Positions 941 through 48,036 of a stretch of 54,759 bases of DNA are shown one piece after another. The DNA lies in IMG/VR virus record IMGVR_UViG_3300030098_005273, positions 1 to 54,759 of that record, one strand, 5' to 3'. The position numbers and the translations under genes were made by a program. How positions within the stretch are numbered: the stretch's first letter is position 1; each line of letters opens with the position of its first letter. The notes beneath the pieces are model-generated. The model had not been told where the DNA came from, did not search any database, and saw only the letters and a list, made by a program, of their open reading frames with translations. Source of the DNA: a virus (lineage: Duplodnaviria > Caudoviricetes).

Positions 941-1255
941 TTAGCCCTCCTTTAAGAGTCTTTTTAATTTTATATACTGGCGCTTACCATCAATTAATTC
1001 ATCGGGTATATCTTTAGCTTTTAAATTACTTTTATCAGCTATCATATTTGCCACATATGAATCAATCAATTCTTCTCTATATCCTTTATGCAATTCTTTG
1101 TAATGTTCTTTATTATTTCTGTAGTATTCTTTTGCATACTTACCCTTATCATCACATTTATCACATACATGATATTTTTCTACATATTTAAGAACAGGAG
1201 GAAGATCTAAACTTTGTTTCCTCCCATCCTCTTCAAAACATTTCAAACACTTCAT
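941..1255 (-). CDS. Zinc-finger hypothetical protein
   Basis: CLKC...CDKC; C-terminal IPDELIDGKRQYIKLKR; ATGA overlap with upstream gene. Confidence 0.75.
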   Translation of the reverse strand: MKCLKCFEEDGRKQSLDLPPVLKYVEKYHVCDKCDDKGKYAKEYYRNNKEHYKELHKGYREELIDSYVANMIADKSNLKAKDIPDELIDGKRQYIKLKRLLKEG

Positions 1256-1482
1256 TTAAGGAATAAATCCTTCTTAGTAGGTTTAGTACCAAGTAATTTG
1301 AAGTATTCCAACATCACCTTCATAAAGTTCAGTTGTTTACCTATACCATTATTAATCTCAACAGCTTCGGTATTCTTATAATAACCATCTTTGGCTATTA
1401 ATGATTTTACAACACCTCTGTGCTGTTTCATCATATCCTCAAAACTATCAAAATCATCAAGCGTTGTTTTGTCTATTGGCAT
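1252..1482 (-). CDS. Hypothetical protein (76 aa)
   Basis: ORF track starts at 1593, but CAGGAG precedes ATG 1482 (MPIDKTT); the extension lies in structured RNA. Confidence 0.7.
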   Translation of the reverse strand: MPIDKTTLDDFDSFEDMMKQHRGVVKSLIAKDGYYKNTEAVEINNGIGKQLNFMKVMLEYFKLLGTKPTKKDLFLK

Positions 1483-1509
1483 TGACTTTTCTCCTGTTTT
1501 AATTAATAG

Positions 1510-1870
1510 AATTCTCTGGGACGAACCACAGTTATTTCGTGGACTCGATGAGTGATCTTCGTGTCGTCCCCGTGCCGTGATTAGTGTAAGCATCTGTTAT
1601 TTCGAGTCACTCAGTAATCATCTAGTTACACTCAGCACATAGACCCTACCCATGGTCAAAAAGTCTCCTTCCTCCACGGTTGGTCATAAGTTTAAATTTC
1701 CTCTACCTGCTACTTATGTTCACAGGCAGAGACATGTAACGATAGCTCCCTTGTTGACATAGATTTCGTATATACTATATCTAGGTGTGCACTACTACCG
1801 CCTCAGCTCTAATTTTTTCCTTCCTGCCGCCAGCCTTTTGTATATACTACCTGGTAGGCTTCACCATTGA
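1510..1870 (-). ncRNA. Large structured ncRNA candidate (RNA-C)
   Basis: No credible ORF, GC above flanks. Helices AGCCT/AGGCT, TAGAT/ATCTA, CTCTGCCTG/CAGGTAGAG (loop CATAAGT complementary to downstream ACTTATG), GGGACGA/TCGTCCC; repeated AGTATATAC and CGAAATAAC motifs. Confidence 0.6.
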
Positions 1871-1875
1871 ATGAA

Positions 1876-1956
1876 TTAGGGGAATATTTGAGTGTGAGGT
1901 CGCAGATCAGGTTAGTAGTCTGCTATTCTATGCTAGGTGAGTAGCTATTCCCCTAA
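1876..1956 (-). ncRNA. Small stem-closed three-way-junction RNA
   Basis: Perfect 11-bp closing stem TTAGGGGAATA/TATTCCCCTAA enclosing GCTA/TAGC and GCAGA/TCTGC hairpins. Confidence 0.5.
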
Positions 1957-1959
1957 AGA

Positions 1960-2011
1960 ATGAAGATATGACGTAAAGGAAGGCCTATGAAACCGAACCG
2001 CCTATCTTCAT
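1960..2011 (-). ncRNA. Hairpin RNA with 25-nt loop antisense to an RBS-ATG-like sequence
   Basis: Stem ATGAAGATA-GGCG/CGTC-A-TATCTTCAT; loop GTTCGGTTTCATAGGCCTTCCTTTA. Confidence 0.45.
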
Positions 2012-2016
2012 CATAT

Positions 2017-2244
2017 CTATTCCTCTGGGAAAATTGAATCTATCATGATTGACAGGCTCAATTTATATTTAAACTCATCAGTCTTAGCTTTTAACTTATC
2101 TAAGATGATTGGCTTATTGGACACAAATGTAATATAAACATCTGATGGGTCTTCCATATTAAGAGTGACATGCTTTATTTGCTTTAATCCATAGTAATTT
2201 CGCATATCCTCTAATGCTTGAGATATCTTATATATATCACTCAT
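2017..2244 (-). CDS. Hypothetical protein
   Basis: 75-aa ORF, GAGGAGG RBS. Confidence 0.75.
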   Translation of the reverse strand: MSDIYKISQALEDMRNYYGLKQIKHVTLNMEDPSDVYITFVSNKPIILDKLKAKTDEFKYKLSLSIMIDSIFPEE

Positions 2245-2354
2245 TATAACCTCCTCATATAAGTCTGAAGGGCTTTAACTCCAAAATATATTAATACAAT
2301 CTCTGCAAACGACCTTATTATATATATAAAATCATAAAATATTGGTATATCCAT
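2244..2354 (-). CDS. Small hydrophobic protein (36 aa, not in ORF track)
   Basis: AAAGGAGG RBS; MDIPIFYDFIYIIRSFAEIVLIYFGVKALQTYMRRL; TAATG overlaps at both ends. Confidence 0.65.
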   Translation of the reverse strand: MDIPIFYDFIYIIRSFAEIVLIYFGVKALQTYMRRL

Positions 2355-2485
2355 TATTTCCCTCCTTTGTATACTACAATAGGCTTAGTTTCTTTCATCC
2401 AGTCTAGTATTTCTTTAACCACACTATCTGGTGAATTACCTTCAACAATTACTTTTGACACTAAGTGCCTGAATTTAACATTCAT
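2354..2485 (-). CDS. Small hypothetical protein (43 aa)
   Basis: AAGGAG upstream of ATG 2485 (MNVKF); the ORF-track extension to 2536 runs into the tmRNA-like RNA. Confidence 0.65.
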   Translation of the reverse strand: MNVKFRHLVSKVIVEGNSPDSVVKEILDWMKETKPIVVYKGGK

Positions 2486-2511
2486 ATGCTTCTCCTTATA
2501 TTTAAAATGAG

Positions 2512-2590
2512 TGGAGTTGGTGGGAATCGAACCCACGTCCTACTATAATACTCTTTCGAGTCTTAGAATAGTCGAAAACCATTCAACCCC
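2512..2590 (-). ncRNA. tmRNA-like RNA consisting only of the tRNA-like domain (mini-tmRNA, 79 nt)
   Basis: GGGGTTG-AATGGTTTTCGA-CTATTCTAAGACTC-GAAA-GAGTATTATAGTAG-GAC-GTGGG-TTCGATT-CCCAC-CAACTCC-A. 7-bp acceptor stem with G3.U wobble and A discriminator; stemless tmRNA-type D-loop ending TTCGAC; GGAC-T arm as at tmRNA 3' ends; CCA not encoded. Confidence 0.85.
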
Positions 2591-2595
2591 TATTT

Positions 2596-2880
2596 GGGTA
2601 CATAAACTGAGACTATGTTTATATACTAGAGAACCTTTGGAAGACTTATTGGTTATCTTCTTTGTCCACTATGTGTTGCCACACAGTAATTCTCCAAACT
2701 CAGTAGTTATAGACTACCACACTTATCGAGTCAGGTCGCTCAACAGTTAATCAATCCTAAGCAGAGTAGCGAGCTCTGAATAAGTTCTTTCACCATTAAA
2801 CATACAAACCTTGACAGGTCAATATGCACTCTATTCACCGAAGTGTAGAGTTTTAGAGTCCTTTGCTCCTTCCTCGCATT
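2596..2880 (-). ncRNA. Large structured ncRNA candidate (RNA-B) abutting the mini-tmRNA
   Basis: ACTCTA-CAC-TTCG-GTG-AA-TAGAGT (cUUCGg); CAGAG-CTCGCTA-CTCTG with loop complementary to downstream AGCGA; ACTGTGTG-GCAA-CACATAGT; terminal TATATAAAC-ATAGTCTCA-GTTTATGTA. Confidence 0.65.
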
Positions 2881-2934
2881 GTCAATTTGTCTTTTTTATC
2901 TATTCATATTATTTACTTTTAGTTAATAGTATTA

Positions 2935-3380
2935 ATTAGAGGGTTAGGTGGCTGCGAGACGACAATGTTGCGGCTTACCAATCTTTTGGACTAGTAAATA
3001 CCACACTCGCATCCTTCATATAATGTCTGGTGAACATAAATATAAGATGTTTCAGGCATGCTTACTCTCTCTTACCTCTCGATAAGACAGTAACCTTAAC
3101 AATGGAACACGACCTATGCACCACACAGCGGCCTAAATTCCTACCCTTTTGATCTATTGAATGTCACCATTCTCAACTCGACTCCCACATCAAGTATTAC
3201 TCAGTCACACCTCATCAGCGTTTGCCACAAAGGCATGAACAAGTAACGATAGGGCTTGCATTGGTAGACCATTTCTGGCGCCTATAATCCATTAATTAAT
3301 TGAATTGGACTTCGACTTTCACCTATTACTAGGCTTATCCTTGTGTTTTATATGCGATACAATACTACCACATAATTCTT
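2935..3380 (-). ncRNA. Large structured ncRNA candidate (RNA-A), possibly GOLLD/ROOL-like
   Basis: GNRA hairpins CCTA-GTAA-TAGG, CCA-GAAA-TGG, GAATG-GTGA-CATTC, CTTATC-GAGA-GGTAAG; nested GCGAG-TGTGG..TACTAGTC-CAAAA-GATTGGTA..CCGCA..CTCGC; long-range AGGGTAGG/CCTAACCCT; no ORF. Confidence 0.65.
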
Positions 3381-3485
3381 ACGAATTTTACAAAATCTTT
3401 AAACTACAACAAATAATAACAACGTTGTAATTGGTAAGGTGCATGCTAAGGTAAGGTTCTACTTCAGCACACACCCAAAAACAAT

Positions 3486-3701
3486 TTAAATCTTTACTTT
3501 TGCCCAAGAAGATGTATCTACCCATTCTTTATCAAATGGTAGCTTATCAGCATTATTACGCTCTGCGTCTAAAACAGATTTAAGTGCGAAATAGTCAGCT
3601 TTCCAAGACAAATACCTCTTTTGAGCTTTCTTATACTTATTAATAACAATAAATATAAGTATTAGCTCTACAAGGGCAACAGAGAGGATAATAGTAATCA
3701 T
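3486..3701 (-). CDS. Small membrane-anchored protein
   Basis: N-terminal hydrophobic helix MITIILSVALVELILIFIVI followed by basic residues. Confidence 0.75.
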   Translation of the reverse strand: MITIILSVALVELILIFIVINKYKKAQKRYLSWKADYFALKSVLDAERNNADKLPFDKEWVDTSSWAKVKI

Positions 3702-3910
3702 TTTAACCTCCCCTCATCATCAGTAAATACAGGCGACATAGTATCACCGTATTTATCCATGAAGTTGTCGTAGACATGGTATAATCTATCTTCTTCAACC
3801 ATAGTATCCATTTCTACTGTACCACATTTACAATCAATAGTAGTGGTAAAACTATTTTTAGTAACACATGCTACCTCTTTGCATTGAGGGCATTCAACAA
3901 ATAACTGCAT
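3698..3910 (-). CDS. Zinc-ribbon protein
   Basis: CPQC...CKC; AAGGAG RBS. Confidence 0.75.
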   Translation of the reverse strand: MQLFVECPQCKEVACVTKNSFTTTIDCKCGTVEMDTMVEEDRLYHVYDNFMDKYGDTMSPVFTDDEGRLK

Positions 3911-4529: not shown

Positions 4530-4750
4530 CTATTGGCATTCTACATAGAATATCATCCTTGATGGCTTCGCAAGCAAGTAAAGGATCAGAAGTTGGGTTG
4601 CCACCTCATATAGAGGTTAAGGATTGTCCCCAATAGTCAATAAAACAGACTCTGATATAAGTTTGGATATGGGAGAGATTACTGGTCTAAAAGCGAAATT
4701 CAGAAGTTAAAAGTTCAAAAATTGGTTAAGCCCTCTCAGGGCTTTTTCTA
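4530..4750 (+). ncRNA. Structured leader / ncRNA ending in an intrinsic-terminator-like hairpin
   Basis: Hairpins ATTCT/AGAAT, ATCCTT..AAGGAT, ACCTC-ATATA-GAGGT, CAGACT..AGTTTG; ends AAGCCCT-CTC-AGGGCTTTTT (4728-4747). Confidence 0.45.
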
Positions 4751-33336: not shown

Positions 33337-36300
33337 ATGGCTGAAAGATATAATAGACTTGAAGAATTAGAAAAATTAATGAGTCAATCAGTTGTGCCTG
33401 ATGATTCAGAACCTATAGAACAGGAGCCTGAGACAGATGATGCAGGATTGATTGATATACCAAAGCCTTATGGAGGGTATGATAATGCTCCATATAGTGG
33501 CAATGATGAGGTTTGGGGAGGTCTTATGCAGCTATATACCCCAGGTACCGATATGCGTGCTACTAAAAGAAAAAGGATGGTTGATTTAAGGAATTATGAT
33601 TTTAGCGCAGAGGGATGGGTTGCACCTGAACCTGAACTTATAGATCCAGGTGGTGAAGAAATATTTGATGAACACGGATTTTGGACAGGAGAAGTTACTC
33701 AACCTACATATACAGATGTAAGCGGTATTGTAGCGCCTACCCCAAAACCTTATGCTGGTAAAAATAGACAAGTTCTCGCAAATCCAGAAGGAGAAGAAGG
33801 ATGGTATTTAGGTAAGAATTTAATTGACCTTGTAGGTAATACTGTGTGGGGAATTGCTGAAGGATTTGGAGCATGGGTCCCAGATATGGCTTCTGGCGGT
33901 GAAATGTCCAAGTTTATGGGTTCTGATGATTGGGCTGATGAAAGTATATGGGGTAAAATAGGTTACAGTGTTGGTACTGGTTTAAGTATGCTTTTTGGTA
34001 TAGGATTGGTTGGAAAAGGACTTCAATGGGGTAGTAAAGCTTTTGGGTTTGGAGTAAAAGCTGCAACTAAAAGTGTTGCAGACGATCTTACAGAGTATGT
34101 TGCAAAAACAAGTATAAAAAAGGGTGGAGTAGAAAAGCTTGTTAAGTCAGCTAGAGCTCAGATTCAAGCAGGTAAAAAGGAAGCTTTAAAAGGCGTAACA
34201 TGGGGGGCACGATTAACTCCTATGAATAGAGCTGCAGCTTTAGCTAGAGGTAATCCTTTATCAAATGAAAAGGTTTATAAAAGTGTATATGACAGCATCA
34301 AAAAAGACCTCAATAAAAAATTAGGTTTAAATTTAGATGATGCAGCTGTAGATAAAGTTACTAAAAAAATAATGGAAGAATCTAGTAACTCACTGCATAA
34401 GCATTTTGGGCACAGTATAGGGCATATAATGGCAGAAAAAGGTCTTAGTTCTGGAAAGGCTAAAATATTATCAGATATGGTCTATGAGGCTGTATTATTG
34501 TCTGCTTATGATGGAATAATGGATATGGGTATGGATTTATGGGCTCAATCTTATATCGATGGAGATGATGTAACTGCTAAGTCAAACATACAACAAGGTT
34601 ACGAATTTACAGAATGGTGGAAGCCGTTTTTTCACGGTGCGGTAACTGGTAGTTTTTTAGGTATGGTAAGGCATATTAAAGGTGGTAAAAAAGTCGATTT
34701 AATGGGTCAAAGTGGAAATCGTAGCGGTATGATAAATGATTTAGGTATAATGAGAAAAGCTATAATGCTTAGGCTTAGAAATGTAAATAATATGGGTGAT
34801 AGACAAATGACAGGATTTTTAAACACCTTATTTCATGCCTCTGATGGAGCTATAATTAAAGATTTGCAAAAGATTGCTACAGAACACGGTCTTCAAAATG
34901 TAGGTAAATTAGGCCGAACATTCTTAGAGAAAATATCTCAACAAGGGTATAAATATACTAAAGCCGATAAGCAGATACTTAGAGAGACTATGACAGCTAT
35001 ACAGAAAACTGTTTTAGGGAAAAATGGTCTTTTAGCTAAGACAGCTGCAGAAATAAGAAAAGATGCAATAGGTTCTTTCGGAAGAGCTACATTAGGCTCA
35101 ATTGTTATGGCTGGATGGGGATATTATGATATGGGTGAGAAAGGACTGCTTCCTTGGCAAACTGATGAAGCAACTAAAAAAGCAGGATATCATCCAGATC
35201 AAAAAGTAACATGGGACAAGCTATTTTTTGACCATATAGTTGGCATGTTTTACATGAAACGTGGTAAGAATGCTGAGACTAATAGTAGATTTTTTTATGA
35301 AGTTATGGGTGATAAACCTATACTGGGTAGTGAAGTTGGAAGAATGTCAAAAGCTATGGAAATATTTGGATATAAAGATTCACAGCTTCAAATTTTCAAC
35401 CATATGGCTCACAGTGAACCTGGAACTGCAATTATGAGAGCAAGTGCTTTAAAGGGTATATATGCAGATAAAGAAATTGTAGGTGTTATTGATAAAATGG
35501 GGGCAGACTTAGTTGATGCTCAGCAATATATAGAGATAGTAAAAAGGACAAATGTAGAAGGTGTTGATCCTAGCGAAAGAGTAGATAATTGGCATGTCCA
35601 TGTTAAAGACCATCTATCTAACTTAGAAACAAAGATACGAGATGCTAAGAAAAAAGGTGATACAAAAGAGCAGGCTAAGCTTGAGAAAGAGCAAATGGAA
35701 GTTCATGATGCAATGCTATTTACTGAAAAGATACAAAGGCTTACCCTGTTTGATATTAATAATAAATCTGTAAGACCTATGACCAGAAAGGATGCATTAA
35801 ACTTTATTCAAAAATATAAAGAGATAACTCTTTCTGATGGGGCTAAAATAAATGTTAATAACTTTGACGTATTAGACAGAATGATAGAAGATGGAGCTTT
35901 TCAATTTACAAGAAAAGTTGAAAATGTAGGTCTAGACTTTATATTTGAGTCTTTAGAAATTCTAGACTTAATTGACCCTACGAATATGACAAAGGGTGCA
36001 AAGATTAATAAAAGCACTTTAAATGCATTAGAGGCAATACTTACTTCCAATACAGGAGGAGAGAAAGGCGTTACAGATAAAATATATGAAACAGCTTACG
36101 CTTTAAGAGAGGCTATGCTTCAAGCTAATAAAGTTGGATTAATAGAGCTTTCTGATGCTGAAGGAAGGGTTTGGGATGCAGGTAGAAAATATAATGCTAA
36201 AGAATTAGCCGAGCTTCAAAGAAAATGGAATGATAAGACGGAAGAAATGCACGAACTTGTATTTAACACTATGGGAGTAGAGAGTAGTTGGAGAGCTAAG

Positions 36301-39300
36301 ATTACAGGATTCCAAGAAGGAGATGGAAGATTTCAAGATAATTATATGTTAGGCTCTACACCTATATGGCACTCTATACAGTCTTCTCATATACATAAAA
36401 GAAATGCTGGCACTATGAGAGCTTTAACTGGAAAAGACGCTAAAGGTCAAGAGTTAGATTATTTTAATAAGATTCAAAAAATGTTAGCAGGTAAGGAAGG
36501 TTTTGAAATAGTATCTGATCAAGGTGGAGTTATTGAATTTGCATCTGAAAAGCAATCTGAGTTTTTAGGTAATTTTAATTCCGCTATGAAAATGCTTCAA
36601 GGTGGTCAAGGAAAAGGATTAAAGAAAATTACTATATCAGAACTAGAGGCTCTTATGAATGAAAGCTATACTATAGGTGGTAATGTTTTTCAGAATACTA
36701 CCGAATTTATGGCATTTAGAAGCTTTCTAAATAGAAGTTTTGTAGAGAGTTTAACAGGGAATAAAGATTTATCCGTGCAGCTAAGGGCTGCTTTGACTAC
36801 TTTAATTTCAAATGACAATTTATTAGTTGTAAGATTAGGTAATCAAGTAAAAATCAGAGACTCTAAATCTCTTGAAGCTATTTTAATGAAAAACGCTAAT
36901 ACTATGACTGAGGTAGAGCTTAAAACTATTACAGAGATGCTAGAAACTTATAGAAAAGATTTTGAAATACCTATGAGAAATGCTTTAGGTAAAACAAATC
37001 AAGCTTTAATCAAGTTTGGCGATGGTAAAATGGTAATGGATCAAGAATTATCTAATTTTAATGTTAATGATATTAAGCAAATGATAACTGAAATTAATAT
37101 TGAGGTTAATAAAAAGAGCTTATTTCAAATCCAAGAGTTTTCTTTTAATGCTGAAAAGCTAAGAGTTAATGTTGCAGACTTGCAAAGCAAGGCAAGTGAA
37201 TATGTAGAGAGAGCTGGATTAGGAGAAGTTACTAAAGAAATGAAACAAGCTATAAAAGACGTATTTGATAGCTATACTAATTTTGAAGCACTTCTGACTC
37301 ATTATCATAATACAAATGATGTTATGGGGCTACAGAAACTTACAGAAAAAGCTGAAATGATGCATATGATAAATAGAAAAGGCGAAAGTTGGAACGGAAA
37401 AGATATAAATTCTATTAGGGAGATTAAAACTCTCTTAGATACCTATGTGAAAGAAGTTAGAGTTGAAAGAGATCAAGCATTAAGACTTGATGAAACTTCT
37501 GATTTAGATGCATATGAAGCAGAGCAGATGGCAGGTTTTAATTTCGATAGAAGTGGAAGAATTAAAAAAGGGTCAGTAACAGTTAGCAAGAGTCAGTATG
37601 AAACAAAATGGAATCTTGAGAAAGACTTTATGGACACCTTGGTCGAGACTCCTAAAACTGCTATGAAAGGATTAGGTCTTTCAGGATTAAATTCTCATGT
37701 CGACTTACATTCTCCTGTAGATGGTGTTACTAAGACTAAATATAAAGATTTAATGGAAAAGGGTTTAGTAGAGCTAAATAAGGGTAATTTTACTGAACGA
37801 GATTTTATCGACATAGTTATTAAACCTTTTGTTAATGCTAAAAGTAAGGAAATAGAGCAAAGAATTAAGGCAGATAAGGAAGTTGGGGGAACTGTAGAAG
37901 AGTTTATACAAGATACTCATGCAATAGTTCAGTCTATGCTATCTACTAAAAAAGGCTTGATGGGTACATTTGAAAATGGTTCTTTAAATATTAAGCAGAC
38001 AACCTTTTCTAATTGGGATAGAGGTGTAAATAGATTAGAGAATGTTTTAGGCTTAGAAGGTCAAATAATAACTTTAGCTCAAAGGGTTGGAACTAGCCAA
38101 GGATATTCTAGTAAACTTTCTCCAGAATTAATCGCTCATATGGAAAGCATTATGTCTGGAAAAGGCACTTGGTTTAATCCAGATGTTTCAGAAGTTTTAA
38201 AATCCCAAGATGTTCAATTCTTAGAGTCTATAAAAGATATGGCTTTAGGAACAGGAAATGATGGTAGGGCAAAATTTGTACCGATAAGATTAGATGAAAA
38301 AAGTATGATTTTAATATCTTTTGCAGGTAGAGGACAAGTTTTAGACGCATGGGCTGATCCATCAGGGAAATTGAGAAAAAAATTAGTAGATGTTGTAGCT
38401 GCAGGAAGTGGATGGTGGACTAGTAAAAGTAAGGCAGAGTCTCTTGTAAATAAATATCTTTCTGAGAATTTAAAAGCGGGTGTTGACGGGAAGGGTATTA
38501 TAGATAATACAAATCCTAATATAGGAGATATACAGACACTTGTATTATTAACTAGAATACTTGAGTCTCCTATGGCTTCAAATATGGCTGCGCTTATAAA
38601 AGGTAATAAAGATATGTTTTCTGCTATTCAAGAAGCAAAATATTTAAAATTAGATAGCCCTAAAAATGGTAAAGCTTTAAGTGAAAGAAATTTAAAGTTT
38701 ACTAAGGAGTATGGAGATGCTTTATATGAACAAGGTTCAGATATGCACAAGCTTCATCAGATATTTAAAGAAAGGACATTTAATGAGGATGGTACTTTAA
38801 AGAAACATAGAACTGTAAATATATTAGATGAAAGTGGAGCTAATAGTAAAAATCACTTTAGTACTGAAAAATTAATGGGAGAAGGTCTTCGAGAGCAAAT
38901 AAAAAGAGATAATCCTGACTTAGATAAGAATCAGATTGAAAAAAGAATGGAAGAATATCAAGAACAATACAAGAGGATTCAAGCTTCTGCTATGAACGGG
39001 GAAAAGTATTTAAGCAGAGATGCTATGATACAAATGTTAATGGCAAACGGTGCAACAAAAGATTGGTTTATATGGGGAGATGTTTTAGATACCTCGGGTA
39101 ATGTTGTAGGAAAAGAAGTTGTTGGTTTTAATGTAGCTTTAAAGCCTATAGAGATGCATCATTCAGTTGAAGCAGATGGGACTATGTCTTTTCATATAGG
39201 TAAAACTGCGTACAAATATCATCCATTAATGGACAAGTTGATGAGATATAGAAGTGGAGATAAGGCAGGTAGTTATATTGTAGAATCAATAGGTTTTGAA

Positions 39301-42300
39301 AGCTCCCATAAAGTTCATGCTAAATTTACACCAGGAATGAACAGTATAGAGAAAACTGGATATGATTTACCTGCAGGTGAAAACAAGGGTAAGTTTTTTG
39401 GCTTTATGGAGAAAAATTCAGACCATGTTAGAGATGGTATAAATATACATAGAATGAATCTTGATTTAGAGTCTATTATGATTAAGTCTGTATCATCTAA
39501 TAAAGATGCAGTTGTATCTTCGGGATTTACTACGTTCATGTCTTCTTCAGGGGTAAAATCTTTAAATATGGCTACAGGTTTAAAGGCTACTACTAAATCT
39601 TTAATGGATCAATTTGCTAATTTATCGCAAAGTCCTTGGGCTTATAAGGATATTATATCTCAGATAAAGAATTATAACAAAGAAACTGGAGACAATATAA
39701 CAGGACTATTTGGAATAGATGCTGTTTTAAACGCTAATGGCTTACCTATCTTTGAATACATGATGCCTCAAATACAAAAAGTAGTGGTTTCTGACCACAT
39801 GGGTACAAGAAACGCAGTAAGCTCAAATCTTGCAAAAGGTAGCAATAATGTTATGACAGCTGGTGATGGATATAGTTTTGCAGAAAGAAGAGGAGGCGTT
39901 CAATATAAATTTGGAGGCTCTGGAATGTCTGGTTATGAGGCAGGAAAAAGTGTTAGAGACTTCTTTACTAAGACAGCTGATGGAAAAATAGTTCCTAGTG
40001 GAGTAGAAGGTCTTAATCTTATATTTAAAGTAACTCCCGAATTAGCTAAAAAGTTTAGAGATATAGGCATAGAGGCTGGAGTAGATATAGCTGTTGTTTT
40101 TGATGCAACGACCGCCTCAGGCATTAGAGTGCTAGGTCCACATATAAGAGATGGATTTGGAAACAGAAAGACTAATAAAGCTAGGATTGAAGAATTCGAG
40201 ACTCAAATGGAAAATTCTTATAAAGAAATCATGAAAGAGCTTTATAAAGAATATACTAAGTATAATGATATGACTGTAGGTGAGTTAACTTATTTATTGG
40301 CTGGAGGTAGTGTAAGAGAATATAGAGATGGAAGAATGGAGTTTAAAGATACTAATTTAAGCTCTATAGTAGAAGGTGCACCAAATGGATTTTCTCCTGG
40401 AATACTATCAAATATAGGCTCAGGAGCCAACTTTAGATCTGTCCACTTAGGTAAAACAGACTTAAGAACTCCTAAGATAGGATTGAATGATTTTGTTATG
40501 ACTAGAGTTGAGAAAACTTTAGATAAAAGAAGAGGTCCTGTAAGTGAGATGAATTTAAAGGATGTATTAGATCCGCAAGATGCAGATTTTGATTTAGATA
40601 AATCTTCAAGTATGCATGCATTGCCTGGAAGAACGTTAGCTGATATATACTCTATGTCAGGCTATATGACTCATTCACAAAAAGCATTTGAAACTGCTTT
40701 AAATGAAGTAAGACTTGATAATCATGGCTCTATACAGCAATATACTAATACATTACAGCAGATAGAAGGATTAAGAGCTGGGCTAATGAGGCAGAATTCA
40801 ATATTGTCTACAATGTTAATGCATTTTTCAGCAAAAGAAACTACAGGCAATCCTCTATTTAGACCTGGTCAAGGTAAGCAGGCTCCTAGCGATGTGAGTG
40901 TTGATCCAAGATTTCAATTAACGACTTTTATGGTAGGTAATAAGGAGTATAAAATATCTATTCGTGAAGGTGGTGATTTAGCAAGTTCAATTGGCTATAT
41001 GAAAAATCTTATAAAGGCTACAATTGATATATATAAGAAGCCTCAAGATGTTACTGGCAAAGAATTAGACAAGCTTATTTGGGAGAATTTTGAAAATGGA
41101 TTTCTTCAGATAACCGAAGTGAATTCTAAAGGTAAAGCTACAAAAATAGATTATGCTAAAGCTAATAAAGAAGTTAGAGAAAAGTTTAATCATATAAGAG
41201 ATAAAATATTAAAGCCTGTAGGAGAGCTTCATAATTTACAGCATATGACTGAGCACTTTGCAGATGGAACATCTAGAAGAATGAGTCCTCAAGAATTGGT
41301 TTATAAGTATGAAAAGATATTAACCGATATTCATTTTGCAGGGAAGGATGCTAAGTTAGATGCAAATAATAAAATAATATCGTTTAAAAACAATGATTTT
41401 GCAGCTCTTACTAGTGAATTATTAAGCTTTTTAGGTGGTGGTAAAAATGCAAAAAATATGGTTATAGACTCACACCCAATGCCTGTAGTTCAAGTATTGA
41501 TGTCTTTAAAGAAAGGAATGAGTAGTCCTTTTGGAGATGCCTCTCTTGATTATGGTATAGGCACATTAATGATGACAGAGAATCTTTCTCAAACTAAAAT
41601 GACAGAGTCTATAAGTAAAATGCTAAGTAATCAAAAAGCTTTAGCTAGTATACATATAGCTCAGTCAAGATTAGATGGTATTAAATCTATTATGGAAAAC
41701 TATGAACGTAGTGGCAGAAAGGGTTCAGATCAATATGTTTATTGGGAAGTACAGGCAAAAACTATTGAAAGAGTTATTAATGAATTCAACAGACAGGTAA
41801 GTGACCCTACGTTTACTTTCGGTAACGGATTAAAGGCGGCTAAAAGGCAAGATGGTAGCAAGTATGTAAATGATGTTACTTTTATTTATAGAGGGCAGTA
41901 CGACACTAATGGAAAGTTTAAATCTGCTCAAGTTGTAAGAAGAGCAAATCCTGGAGAACTTATTTATTGGAAAAAGGGTGATGTAGTAGTAACCAATCCT
42001 AAGAGAATAGAGGCTGGAAATGACCATATAAATAAAGTTAGAAGAGCTGAAGCTTCTGCATTTGGAAGAGTTCTATTAGGTCAAGATGGAAACATCCTAG
42101 CTCTTGAAAAGCTTGTTAAAGACTTTAGCAATAAAGTTAGGGAGATTCCAAATGAATTAATAGACCCGAATTCTCCCATGACTAGCGATAAGTTTAATAT
42201 GATAAATGAATTTGAGCTTAGATATGTAGCAGATATAGTTGATGCTGCTATGTCTATAGGAGGAAAGCAATCAGCACAACAAGTTTTGATGATGCTAATG

Positions 42301-42978
42301 ACTCCTAGGCTTAAAGAAAATGTTTTCAATATATCTGGATACAATGTTCATCAAAAATCTGCTGCTTTAAGCACCACCTATCAAAGCAATAAGCGTAATG
42401 AAAGAATGGTATTATCTTATTTAGAAAGAGCTATGAATGGAAAAGCATCTACAACCTTAGAGGCTACTCAAGCTAGAGAAATATACGAATGGATGAATAC
42501 TGAGTTTAAAAAGGCATTTGTAAAGCAATGGGATCCAACAAGGCAGGGAGATATATTTACCTTTCAACAAAATAATAGAAGAGTTGAGGATTTCTCTTTA
42601 TTAAATCCACTAAACGACATTCCCTCATTTATGACAAGTAAGGAGATTACAAAGAAAAGTAGAGAAGTTATGCAGGCTTATTTAACTGGAACTTATTTTA
42701 TGGATCCTGCAGCTTTATACAGATTTACATTAGGTATGAAAGGAGCTGAATATAAAGATGGTACTTGGAATATCCCAGGCGGGAGAAAGATGCATAATGT
42801 GATAGAAGGTATGTGGGAAGGAACTAGCGGAAGACATATAAATGGAGATGGAGGTATATATATACCTAATAGCGTGTTTAGAAAGTCAGACCCTAACTTT
42901 GTTAGAAGACAAAATAAGGATTCTGAAGGTATAGGTGCTGGTATAGAGAAAATAGAAAGTCAATGCTTTGGAAATTAA
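33337..42978 (+). CDS. Giant virion protein with two-barrel (crAss-like) RNA polymerase domain
   Basis: 3213 aa; DADFDLD at aa 2415-2421 (nt 40579-40599), upstream RTP motif, and KTAYK / ESSHKV Lys motifs; located in the ejection-protein block. Confidence 0.75.
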   Translation: MAERYNRLEELEKLMSQSVVPDDSEPIEQEPETDDAGLIDIPKPYGGYDNAPYSGNDEVWGGLMQLYTPGTDMRATKRKRMVDLRNYDFSAEGWVAPEPELIDPGGEEIFDEHGFWTGEVTQPTYTDVSGIVAPTPKPYAGKNRQVLANPEGEEGWYLGKNLIDLVGNTVWGIAEGFGAWVPDMASGGEMSKFMGSDDWADESIWGKIGYSVGTGLSMLFGIGLVGKGLQWGSKAFGFGVKAATKSVADDLTEYVAKTSIKKGGVEKLVKSARAQIQAGKKEALKGVTWGARLTPMNRAAALARGNPLSNEKVYKSVYDSIKKDLNKKLGLNLDDAAVDKVTKKIMEESSNSLHKHFGHSIGHIMAEKGLSSGKAKILSDMVYEAVLLSAYDGIMDMGMDLWAQSYIDGDDVTAKSNIQQGYEFTEWWKPFFHGAVTGSFLGMVRHIKGGKKVDLMGQSGNRSGMINDLGIMRKAIMLRLRNVNNMGDRQMTGFLNTLFHASDGAIIKDLQKIATEHGLQNVGKLGRTFLEKISQQGYKYTKADKQILRETMTAIQKTVLGKNGLLAKTAAEIRKDAIGSFGRATLGSIVMAGWGYYDMGEKGLLPWQTDEATKKAGYHPDQKVTWDKLFFDHIVGMFYMKRGKNAETNSRFFYEVMGDKPILGSEVGRMSKAMEIFGYKDSQLQIFNHMAHSEPGTAIMRASALKGIYADKEIVGVIDKMGADLVDAQQYIEIVKRTNVEGVDPSERVDNWHVHVKDHLSNLETKIRDAKKKGDTKEQAKLEKEQMEVHDAMLFTEKIQRLTLFDINNKSVRPMTRKDALNFIQKYKEITLSDGAKINVNNFDVLDRMIEDGAFQFTRKVENVGLDFIFESLEILDLIDPTNMTKGAKINKSTLNALEAILTSNTGGEKGVTDKIYETAYALREAMLQANKVGLIELSDAEGRVWDAGRKYNAKELAELQRKWNDKTEEMHELVFNTMGVESSWRAKITGFQEGDGRFQDNYMLGSTPIWHSIQSSHIHKRNAGTMRALTGKDAKGQELDYFNKIQKMLAGKEGFEIVSDQGGVIEFASEKQSEFLGNFNSAMKMLQGGQGKGLKKITISELEALMNESYTIGGNVFQNTTEFMAFRSFLNRSFVESLTGNKDLSVQLRAALTTLISNDNLLVVRLGNQVKIRDSKSLEAILMKNANTMTEVELKTITEMLETYRKDFEIPMRNALGKTNQALIKFGDGKMVMDQELSNFNVNDIKQMITEINIEVNKKSLFQIQEFSFNAEKLRVNVADLQSKASEYVERAGLGEVTKEMKQAIKDVFDSYTNFEALLTHYHNTNDVMGLQKLTEKAEMMHMINRKGESWNGKDINSIREIKTLLDTYVKEVRVERDQALRLDETSDLDAYEAEQMAGFNFDRSGRIKKGSVTVSKSQYETKWNLEKDFMDTLVETPKTAMKGLGLSGLNSHVDLHSPVDGVTKTKYKDLMEKGLVELNKGNFTERDFIDIVIKPFVNAKSKEIEQRIKADKEVGGTVEEFIQDTHAIVQSMLSTKKGLMGTFENGSLNIKQTTFSNWDRGVNRLENVLGLEGQIITLAQRVGTSQGYSSKLSPELIAHMESIMSGKGTWFNPDVSEVLKSQDVQFLESIKDMALGTGNDGRAKFVPIRLDEKSMILISFAGRGQVLDAWADPSGKLRKKLVDVVAAGSGWWTSKSKAESLVNKYLSENLKAGVDGKGIIDNTNPNIGDIQTLVLLTRILESPMASNMAALIKGNKDMFSAIQEAKYLKLDSPKNGKALSERNLKFTKEYGDALYEQGSDMHKLHQIFKERTFNEDGTLKKHRTVNILDESGANSKNHFSTEKLMGEGLREQIKRDNPDLDKNQIEKRMEEYQEQYKRIQASAMNGEKYLSRDAMIQMLMANGATKDWFIWGDVLDTSGNVVGKEVVGFNVALKPIEMHHSVEADGTMSFHIGKTAYKYHPLMDKLMRYRSGDKAGSYIVESIGFESSHKVHAKFTPGMNSIEKTGYDLPAGENKGKFFGFMEKNSDHVRDGINIHRMNLDLESIMIKSVSSNKDAVVSSGFTTFMSSSGVKSLNMATGLKATTKSLMDQFANLSQSPWAYKDIISQIKNYNKETGDNITGLFGIDAVLNANGLPIFEYMMPQIQKVVVSDHMGTRNAVSSNLAKGSNNVMTAGDGYSFAERRGGVQYKFGGSGMSGYEAGKSVRDFFTKTADGKIVPSGVEGLNLIFKVTPELAKKFRDIGIEAGVDIAVVFDATTASGIRVLGPHIRDGFGNRKTNKARIEEFETQMENSYKEIMKELYKEYTKYNDMTVGELTYLLAGGSVREYRDGRMEFKDTNLSSIVEGAPNGFSPGILSNIGSGANFRSVHLGKTDLRTPKIGLNDFVMTRVEKTLDKRRGPVSEMNLKDVLDPQDADFDLDKSSSMHALPGRTLADIYSMSGYMTHSQKAFETALNEVRLDNHGSIQQYTNTLQQIEGLRAGLMRQNSILSTMLMHFSAKETTGNPLFRPGQGKQAPSDVSVDPRFQLTTFMVGNKEYKISIREGGDLASSIGYMKNLIKATIDIYKKPQDVTGKELDKLIWENFENGFLQITEVNSKGKATKIDYAKANKEVREKFNHIRDKILKPVGELHNLQHMTEHFADGTSRRMSPQELVYKYEKILTDIHFAGKDAKLDANNKIISFKNNDFAALTSELLSFLGGGKNAKNMVIDSHPMPVVQVLMSLKKGMSSPFGDASLDYGIGTLMMTENLSQTKMTESISKMLSNQKALASIHIAQSRLDGIKSIMENYERSGRKGSDQYVYWEVQAKTIERVINEFNRQVSDPTFTFGNGLKAAKRQDGSKYVNDVTFIYRGQYDTNGKFKSAQVVRRANPGELIYWKKGDVVVTNPKRIEAGNDHINKVRRAEASAFGRVLLGQDGNILALEKLVKDFSNKVREIPNELIDPNSPMTSDKFNMINEFELRYVADIVDAAMSIGGKQSAQQVLMMLMTPRLKENVFNISGYNVHQKSAALSTTYQSNKRNERMVLSYLERAMNGKASTTLEATQAREIYEWMNTEFKKAFVKQWDPTRQGDIFTFQQNNRRVEDFSLLNPLNDIPSFMTSKEITKKSREVMQAYLTGTYFMDPAALYRFTLGMKGAEYKDGTWNIPGGRKMHNVIEGMWEGTSGRHINGDGGIYIPNSVFRKSDPNFVRRQNKDSEGIGAGIEKIESQCFGN

Positions 42979-47758: not shown

Positions 47759-47788
47759 TTGAACCTCCAAAGTTAATGTAGAGGCTTA

Positions 47789-47817
47789 AAGTTAGCATAT
47801 CTTGTCGTCATTTTCAA
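47789..47817 (-). promoter_or_regulatory. sigma70-type promoter with extended -10
   Basis: TTGAAA-N17-TAACTT with TGn before the -10; flanked by inverted repeat GAGGCTT/AAGCCTC. Confidence 0.55.
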
Positions 47818-47847
47818 CGAAAAATTCTTCAAGCCTCCACAATTCAA

Positions 47848-47933
47848 TATAGGCGAGAGCTGAGCACAGCTATTTGTTTTCCTCTCTTATGTCTCTACAA
47901 CCTCGTCAGGATTTACGCTCGTAGACACCTATA
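47848..47933 (-). ncRNA. Stem-closed multi-branch RNA element
   Basis: TATAGGTG/CGCCTATA closing stem; TCTAC/GTAGA and GAGAG/CTCTC arms. Confidence 0.45.
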
Positions 47934-47940
47934 AATTTAC

Positions 47941-48030
47941 GAGAGAAGGCGTGTAACAGTTACTCTTATGTTACTTTATTGGCTGTCAATTAAATGACTG
48001 ATGCATCACCTGCGGACTCTACCTTCTCTC
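47941..48030 (-). ncRNA. Stem-closed multi-branch RNA element
   Basis: GAGAGAAGG/CCTTCTCTC perfect 9-bp stem; internal GTCA/TGAC and GTAACA/TGTTAC hairpins. Confidence 0.45.
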
Positions 48031-48036
48031 AATTAT

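Follow-up and report, generated by a model that had tools for sequence, protein, structure and literature searches.

GOLLD RNAs are phage-borne RNAs, often longer than 800 nucleotides (nt), whose 3' region is conserved and whose 5' region is variable. They lie near transfer RNA (tRNA) islands, tRNAs sometimes sitting within the GOLLD linker, and the available sections of the study in which the marine env-38 GOLLD was seen as a 14-mer cage by cryo-electron microscopy describe the function of the family as not known (Kretsch et al. 2025, PMC12286853). A second kind of phage RNA, a transfer-messenger RNA (tmRNA) that lacks a coding sequence (CDS) and consists of the tRNA-like domain (TLD) only, has been described in mycobacteriophage DS6A (Hudson, Lau and Williams 2014, PMC4131195; PMC11915505). 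According to the portions of these sources at hand, a molecule similar to that of DS6A strongly inhibits tmRNA in E. coli, and TLD-only tmRNAs are proposed to inhibit trans-translation in the host, perhaps through titration of SmpB. Here we describe a stretch of about 2 kb (positions 1510-3480) of a 54,759-nt viral record, IMGVR_UViG_3300030098_005273, which was analysed at its full length and is referred to as the window. We conclude that this stretch is most probably an accessory RNA island of an uncultured marine phage, consisting of three minus-strand units: a GOLLD RNA, a tag-less mini-tmRNA and a block named RNA-C. The GOLLD of the window is a further member of a known family, and the mini-tmRNA is a further member of a kind reported once in the accessible parts of the literature.

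An initial annotation of the stretch had proposed an unusual non-coding island in a tightly packed genome, read on the minus strand and holding at least six structured RNAs, i.e. RNA-A, RNA-B, the mini-tmRNA, two stem-closed small RNAs and RNA-C. The island itself was borne out by our analysis. Mechanical open reading frames (ORFs; at least 40 amino acids, on the expected strand) cover 94% of the window, and the two largest ORF-free gaps of the window, 2537-3387 (851 nt) and 1594-2016 (423 nt), both lie within the stretch. The ORF list and a reading of the sequence place the non-coding DNA at 3485-2486 and 2016-1483, which together make about 1.5 kb. The assigned strand was also correct, as the matches to two Rfam families and to our own covariance model are all on the minus strand; the features described below lie on that strand unless marked (+). 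The number of RNAs was revised, as we count three RNA genes or blocks rather than at least six.

The GOLLD model (Rfam RF02032) matched positions 2604-3013 (-) with 173.4 bits against a gathering score of 150 (E = 4.7e-47), including all model positions (1-416 of 416). The extent of this model is limited to the last hairpin of the 5' domain, the A-rich linker and the conserved 3' domain, so that the matched segment, 2604-3013, contains these three elements and includes the former RNA-B. The variable 5' domain, which corresponds to the former RNA-A, was placed at 3014-3376 by alignment with six related loci and by RNA contigs. In this alignment (seven loci in total), about 360 nt upstream of the Rfam match align with the corresponding stretch of the relatives, conserved blocks are present, and the 5' domain begins at about 3372. 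Of 34 predicted pairs in the domain, 21 keep pairing through two-sided changes. Six of 40 related records carry GOLLD.

Logan contigs of four metatranscriptome runs, each from a different study, were mapped on positions 1200-3800. Contigs of the GOLLD span were found in all four runs, and their cover corresponds to 2605-3376. One contig of 733 nt lies wholly inside GOLLD (2605-3343) and joins the 5' and 3' domains, while another of 494 nt matches 2883-3376 with a single difference. The Rfam match, the spanning contigs and the homology of the 5' domain establish that RNA-A and RNA-B, which had been annotated as separate RNAs, form a single GOLLD RNA, with RNA-A on its 5' side and RNA-B on its 3' side, that extends from about 3372 to 2604. 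We also conclude that GOLLD of the window type is present in RNA libraries. Two considerations weigh against equating the contigs with transcription from this strand: RNA libraries can contain DNA, and contigs reveal neither strand nor level. In the low-depth run X19, other contigs also cover the small-ORF spans 2303-2479 and 3594-3800.

Contig or adapter ends were found at 3376, 3371 and 3368 in three of the runs, the end at 3368 abutting adapter sequence. These positions give a weak hint that GOLLD ends near 3372 and 2605, i.e. that it is about 770 nt long. Reading of the sequence upstream identified TAAAAT at 3385-3390 (-), a -10-like hexamer that lies 9-17 nt upstream of the contig ends and may belong to a GOLLD promoter; as it was absent from the output of the promoter scan, it is put forward only as a putative element. 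GOLLD is probably an RNA of about 770 nt with its own promoter. In the alternative model of the initial annotation, an RNA polymerase packaged in the virion makes one early transcript, from which six or more separate small RNAs are processed to act in concert against host translation or defence. Several observations agree with such a scheme. All units are on one strand, the terminator scan listed no terminator-like site between 3400 and 1500, the island is near the divergent region at about 4540-4721 where the minus-strand block starts, and tRNA-like elements directly flank GOLLD in five records, an arrangement that fits processing by tRNA enzymes. However, RNA-A and RNA-B are one RNA, the units are separate in relatives, and the contig ends at about 3368-3376, downstream of the -10-like hexamer, suggest an independent start of GOLLD. 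The RNA contigs do not extend past the GOLLD ends; this hints only weakly at separate ends, and the contigs provide no support for the proposed co-transcription and processing. In addition, GOLLD rises during lysis, not early, in another system covered by the available text of PMC12286853. The 3213-amino acid ORF at 33337-42978 (+) did not support the packaged polymerase, as it had no Pfam family, no PDB sequence match and no tblastn match among 50,697 phage records, although sequence searches can miss virion RNA polymerases. From these results we consider the single early transcript to be unlikely, and favor a GOLLD RNA with a start of its own.

The GOLLD of the window resembles the family described in the accessible parts of PMC12286853 in its full-length model match, its conserved 3' and variable 5' layout, its size class of about 800 nt, its location in a phage and its tRNA-like neighbor. 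It differs in that the neighbor is a tag-less tmRNA and not an ordinary tRNA, and in its length, about 770 nt being somewhat shorter than the examples of more than 800 nt given there. A cage was observed for the solved RNA and is only predicted here; by homology to the solved GOLLD, the RNA of the window probably self-assembles to form a multimeric cage of RNA. A GOLLD that is compact, marine and naturally expressed, with ends defined in metatranscriptome contigs, would be useful for the question of function that was left after the structure was solved. In three relatives, the ORF directly following GOLLD, or following GOLLD and the mini-tmRNA, opens with DVDGT (L082:1948-2376, L087:1940-2398 and L086:2059-2628), a start that we take to resemble the motif of HAD-type phosphatases.

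The second unit was identified by the tmRNA model (Rfam RF00023), which matched 2509-2590 (-) with 62.3 bits against a gathering score of 47. The mini-tmRNA of the initial annotation is thereby confirmed as genuine. In this match, 11 nt stand in for the message and pseudoknot part of the model, which comprises 303 positions. Taking the Rfam match together with the fold and the relatives, the element was placed at 2511-2590 as a tRNA-like domain only, 80-82 nt in length. It contains a 7-bp acceptor stem with G3:U70, a discriminator A (A73) at position 2512 and a standard T arm. The predicted fold consists of the acceptor stem, the T arm and one short central helix that replaces the whole mRNA and pseudoknot part (z -2.06). 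This RNA is not a full tmRNA, because its message part is reduced to 11 nt and ARAGORN reported no tag peptide; the tRNA-like domain is present, and a resume codon, a tag frame, pseudoknots and an encoded CCA were not found. It does not form the cloverleaf of a tRNA-Ala either, since a single central helix takes the place of the D and anticodon arms, and ARAGORN listed 0 tRNAs and 0 tmRNAs in the whole window. Two of the 40 related records contain the mini-tmRNA, and a third match among them, at 12.4 bits, is not credible as one. In three copies from the clade, the acceptor and T stems differ in sequence with pairing and G3:U70 kept.

A pattern scan of IMG/VR for short tmRNA forms yielded at least 118 loci (L131-L247), which after de-duplication gave at least 62 distinct non-tRNA mini-tmRNAs of 69-98 nt. 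Among the matches listed, CCA is encoded in 20 of the 62 distinct sequences, and 41 matches of the same scan are ordinary tRNA-Ala genes according to ARAGORN. When 55 of the mini-tmRNAs were aligned, three T-arm pairs were found to change on both sides in 39, 21 and 13 sequences, as did acceptor pair 5:68 in 23; the remaining acceptor pairs were fixed by the search pattern. A near-copy of the mini-tmRNA of the window is located at L149:598-677.

Integration at ssrA is common among phages, which then carry the 3' end of this gene. The mini-tmRNA could accordingly be a non-working element, either a decayed copy of a tRNA-Ala or tmRNA gene or an integration-site remnant of host ssrA. Several points weigh in this direction and against a functional RNA: the 3' tail is CUC with no CCA encoded, ordinary tRNA-Ala genes were caught by the same pattern scan, and the element has no support from RNA contigs. 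The sole contig cover at this position, 2507-2540, continues into unrelated sequence and is probably the T arm of another organism. In contrast, the acceptor stem is intact in both halves, as are G3:U70, A73 and the canonical T arm, compensatory changes are present in the 55 aligned sequences from many unrelated contigs, an integration-site remnant would hold the 3' part only, and ARAGORN found no tRNA. Furthermore, inhibitory activity of a TLD-only molecule is reported in the available parts of PMC4131195 and PMC11915505. We regard a non-working copy as quite unlikely and treat the mini-tmRNA as a probably functional RNA.

The closest described counterpart is the CDS-less tmRNA of DS6A. As far as the consulted portions of the DS6A literature describe it, both RNAs are phage-encoded, comprise little beyond a tRNA-like domain and have no tag frame. 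The element of the window differs in being marine and low in G+C, in lacking an encoded CCA and in adjoining GOLLD; the curators of a tmRNA database require an encoded 3' CCA, as stated in the accessible part of PMC11915505. In the literature available to us a TLD-only tmRNA is reported for one phage only, DS6A, whereas the IMG/VR scan shows that the kind is frequent, with its at least 62 distinct sequences. Our literature search found descriptions neither of a mini-tmRNA beside GOLLD nor of many phage TLD-only tmRNAs. Because the identity elements are present and DS6A provides a precedent, we propose a series of steps for this RNA. RNase P would cut at the 5' end of the mini-tmRNA, which would also set the 3' end of GOLLD; the 3' end of the mini-tmRNA would be trimmed and CCA added, and alanyl-tRNA synthetase would charge the product via G3:U70. 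The charged RNA would bind host SmpB and, having no message, would block or divert host ribosome rescue by acting as a decoy. By analogy, the mini-tmRNA, once processed, extended by CCA and alanylated, would probably be a decoy for SmpB and for stalled ribosomes. The initial annotation had assigned an aim at host translation to the whole stretch; that aim is a reasonable inference for the mini-tmRNA and did not extend to the other units. The at least 62 distinct tag-less tmRNAs suggest that phages may commonly interfere with ribosome rescue.

GOLLD and the mini-tmRNA adjoin in all five records that were found with both. The mini-tmRNA is at the 3' end of GOLLD in the window (13-nt spacer) and in record G001 (15 nt), and just 5' of the GOLLD 5' domain in records G019 (7 nt), G060 and G068. 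In addition, a tRNA-like T arm was observed directly 5' of the GOLLD 5' domain in G001 (L086, about 1080-1150), so that the GOLLD of this record appears to be flanked by tRNA-type elements on both sides. The arrangement is consistent with tRNA-processing enzymes setting the ends of GOLLD. tRNA-like elements act as processing signals of long RNAs in MALAT1-mascRNA and in the tRNA punctuation of mitochondrial transcripts. Common to these systems and the window is a tRNA-like fold abutting the end of a long structured RNA; the window differs in that cleavage is a predicted step, and in that GOLLD is absent from 48 of 50 mini-tmRNA records among the matches listed. We had considered that the mini-tmRNA serves mainly as a GOLLD processing signal, and rejected this possibility because most mini-tmRNA records are without GOLLD. 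A look-alike of ribosome rescue in place of the usual tRNA neighbor offers a handle on whether GOLLD is linked to tRNA-type processing or to stalled ribosomes.

The units of the island are also distributed separately. GOLLD (6 of 40 related records), the mini-tmRNA (2 of 40) and the RNA-C module described below (10 of 80 large terminase loci, with many loci not long enough to include the region) occur independently, and one carrier of the module, L039, is a record without GOLLD. Since each occurs without the others, we conclude that the units are independent and shuffled, as in tRNA islands, and the view of a cassette centred on the mini-tmRNA was abandoned. Phage and prophage tRNA islands with GOLLD or ROOL, as far as the accessible sections of PMC12286853 and PMC6582537 describe them, share with the window a cluster of non-coding RNA genes, a variable region and mosaic content, as well as tRNA-type elements that flank GOLLD or sit inside it. 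The window departs from these islands in having no tRNA reported by ARAGORN, and contains the mini-tmRNA and an uncatalogued structured RNA instead.

This uncatalogued RNA is the third unit. Comparison among relatives indicates that the two stem-closed small RNAs and RNA-C, annotated as separate RNAs, make up one contiguous modular non-coding block of 534 nt (1483-2016). No Rfam 15 match was obtained on the RNA-C strand of 1483-2016 with E up to 10, and none was obtained in the short-form locus L035 either, so the Rfam check was negative for this unit. Compared with shuffled sequences, the fold energy of 1483-2016 was weakly better for the minus strand (z -1.63), and for the plus strand there was no gain (z +0.38). 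Because fold energy only weakly beats shuffles, the case for RNA-C rests on comparison with relatives. The whole block is present in L039, with a near-identical core and flanks that are about 78% identical. L094 and L101 carry the block without an insert of about 120 nt, and nhmmer showed that the two flanking parts abut there; in the alignment of the four loci, the parts of RNA-C are joined in L039, L094 and L101. RNA-C also lies inside 1200-2243, over which there is no cover by RNA contigs; RNA-C thus has no support from RNA libraries, and the lack of cover is in itself uninformative.

Hairpin 1 of RNA-C (1960-2011), the first of the stem-closed small RNAs, was defined by alignment and single-sequence folds. 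Its long stem is retained in L039 and L094 despite a different sequence, and hairpin 1 is absent in L101. Hairpin 2 (1876-1956), the second of them, was defined by the four-locus alignment and folds and consists of an 11-bp closing stem, an inner conserved hairpin and a variable hairpin for which two unrelated versions are swapped among relatives. An exact 25-nt pattern of hairpin 2 is found in 4 IMG/VR contigs only. Alignment and nhmmer divide the middle of the block (1694-1875) into the conserved tail of part I, which extends to about 1813, and the insert of about 120 nt (about 1812-1694). Where hairpins are replaced, i.e. hairpin 1 and the variable hairpin of hairpin 2, the unrelated sequences still form stems, and the versions are mosaic among the four loci. 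The mosaic pattern suggests recombination between phages. Within 1876-2011, one variable hairpin version of the window is common with L101 and another with L094. A possible paralogy of RNA-A and RNA-C was rejected, as only words of 7-15 nt are shared and an nhmmer profile of seven GOLLD 5' domains, run at maximum sensitivity, did not match RNA-C.

The 3' module of RNA-C (1509-1696, about 184 nt) has no Rfam family and was defined by covariation and by a covariance model that we named R1. For this analysis, 38 distinct module sequences were gathered by nhmmer and two pattern scans. R1 was built on 24 long forms and searched against 61 sources, 40 of which had been picked for having matches and 21 of which were other terminase loci. 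The module of the window scored 148.1 bits (-), and 37 sequences were matched in the 61 sources, none of them in the 21 other terminase loci. The predicted structure contains helices P1, P2 (variable), P3 with an inserted arm P3b, P4 and P5, together with the conserved unpaired runs ACUUA, CCAAC, GAYCACUCA, RUAAC and CCCAAAG. Long forms are about 175-195 nt, and short forms of about 105-150 nt are without the P3 arm.

In the R1 alignment, 89.1% of the pair cells are standard as compared to 77.7% in shuffles, and slid registers gave 27-46%. Two-sided changes were found at 16 of 24 pairs, a number that was reached by none of 500 shuffles. These values support a conserved structure of the module with covarying helices. 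A number of points weigh against this structure. P3 pairs in only 67.7% of the cells of the model alignment, where it is misregistered. When P3 was re-registered by its G run, 92 of 96 cells were paired in the 24 long forms, with 12 helix versions, compared to 62.7 +/- 4.7 with shuffled partners; this improvement comes from manual re-registration only, and the regular expression used mis-parsed some rows, including P1 of the window. Moreover, the model itself guided the alignment, the search pattern predetermined part of P4, and many of the sequences are from related phages, so that the counts overstate the number of independent events. MAFFT misplaces the short forms and one 5' variant, and RNAalifold on those alignments recovers only P3b, P4 and P5. 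A sixth helix (P6) and a pseudoknot, for which pairs had been proposed by hand, were dropped as they were without consistent support. Considering these results together, we propose that the module is a structured RNA motif of marine phages that matches nothing catalogued. It is a candidate new motif and the most original part of the island.

Additional carriers of the module were sought by pattern. An exact 20-nt module pattern was found in one other contig only. The pattern CCACTCA...RTAAC...CCCAAAG gave 52 loci, of which 11 were real and already known; the 41 new ones are unrelated conserved coding stretches with 0 R1 matches, and this search was discarded. A scan of genome contigs gave 33 loci, one of which was confirmed by nhmmer on a contig that is also in IMG/VR; the rest are chance matches in G+C-rich genomes and were likewise discarded. 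One module is located at L103:3483-3676 (the same contig as L280), on a 46-kb contig filed under a Prochlorococcus single-cell assembly. The terminase of this contig is 31% identical to that of the window, and the filing is at most a hint of the host range of a distant carrier. In the post-module DNA of L035, a GGGAAUA...CCCCUA stem at 2320-2604 (-) is reminiscent of hairpin 2 of the window and may represent the same parts in a different order.

The position of the module in the window raised the possibility that it is a cis-acting leader, riboswitch or mRNA-stabilizing element for the following ORF (1482-1252). The module ends 26 nt before the AGGAG-ATG of this ORF, and its compact multi-helix fold with conserved unpaired runs is aptamer-like. 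The distance from the module to the next ORF ranges from 10 to 586 nt, and in 9 of the 24 long forms examined (the window and eight others) an ORF starts 10-32 nt downstream, which counts against a stand-alone RNA. Because of these nine forms, a leader role keeps some small share of probability. In most loci, however, the gap is 100-586 nt, the flanking genes vary and the downstream proteins differ between loci. In seven of nine short forms, the module starts where one conserved ORF of 171-237 amino acids ends, at its stop codon. In short-form loci that extend to a next ORF, the module is followed by another 143-414 nt of non-coding DNA. A riboswitch or leader would be expected to have a constant class of downstream gene and an expression platform. 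Here the ORFs vary, no terminator-like site was found in 1000-2000, and neither a helix masking the ribosome-binding site nor an Rfam riboswitch match was found. A leader is therefore a doubtful reading of the module, and RNA-C would rather be a stand-alone folded RNA or an RNA-protein scaffold, not the leader of the next gene.

Conservation of the ORF-free gaps could also reflect small proteins that were missed by the ORF rules. Mechanical ORFs do exist in the gaps, e.g. 1252-1593 (113 amino acids from an upstream ATG) and 3388-3525. Against this explanation, relatives differ by whole-hairpin insertions and deletions whose lengths are not divisible by three, and paired positions show compensatory changes. 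Positions 2509-3013 are accounted for by the GOLLD and tmRNA models. The extended part of ORF 1252-1593 runs into the module, and a proper ribosome-binding site and ATG are located at 1482. Coding as the source of conservation is thus highly improbable, and we retain the reading of the gaps as structured RNA.

A more far-reaching interpretation is that the 3' module of RNA-C represents a new phage RNA class acting on the host translation apparatus, for instance as a ribozyme or as a ligand-binding, ribosome-binding or protein-binding RNA, and that together with GOLLD and the tag-less tmRNA it constitutes an interchangeable RNA-only toolset shuffled in one island. We offer this only as a speculative suggestion with little probability at present. 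If it were true, the repeated flanking by tRNA-like or tmRNA-like elements would tie the function of GOLLD to ribosome rescue or tRNA biology. Independent of this interpretation, a module with 37 examples and covarying helices is a candidate structured RNA family, which is enough for biochemistry to begin.

Three tiny ORFs had been annotated between the mini-tmRNA and RNA-C, two of which are supported by relatives. The 43-amino acid ORF at 2354-2485, preceded by AAGGAGA, and the 75-amino acid ORF at 2017-2244 both have DNA matches in L004 and L039, and L086 contains homologues of 44 and 81 amino acids, respectively. The hydrophobic 36-amino acid ORF at 2244-2354 is without a match, as the blastn matches in L004 and L039 skip its span; judged from its absence in the relatives compared, it may not be a gene. 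On the other side of RNA-C, a 76-amino acid ORF with AGGAG before its ATG (1252-1482) starts 26 nt after the module. No Pfam or PHROG family was assigned to the 43-, 36-, 75- or 76-amino acid ORFs, and the family searches with small ORFs gave one weak PHROG, a family of unknown function, for 941-1255.

The viral record is estimated to be 95% complete and contains genes for a small terminase, a P22-type portal, an SU10-type capsid protein and a DnaB-type helicase. Its large terminase has at least 599 relatives in IMG/VR, the best 80 of which share 76-90% identity, and is at most 26% identical to those of the cultured phages listed. A blastn search in distant mode with positions 1500-3500 gave no match in the 50,697 phage records. 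The third largest ORF-free gap of the window, 47771-48036 (266 nt), contained nothing that passed the Rfam gathering thresholds. DNA runs that contain the stretch carry a marine label. Finally, reading of the sequence identified an imperfect hairpin at 3438-3475 (-), right after the stop of a 71-amino acid ORF (3486-3701) and outside the GOLLD RNA. The terminator scan did not list this hairpin, and the RNA contigs stop short of it and are uninformative in this respect. The hairpin may be the end signal of the upstream 71-amino acid gene, one without a U tail.

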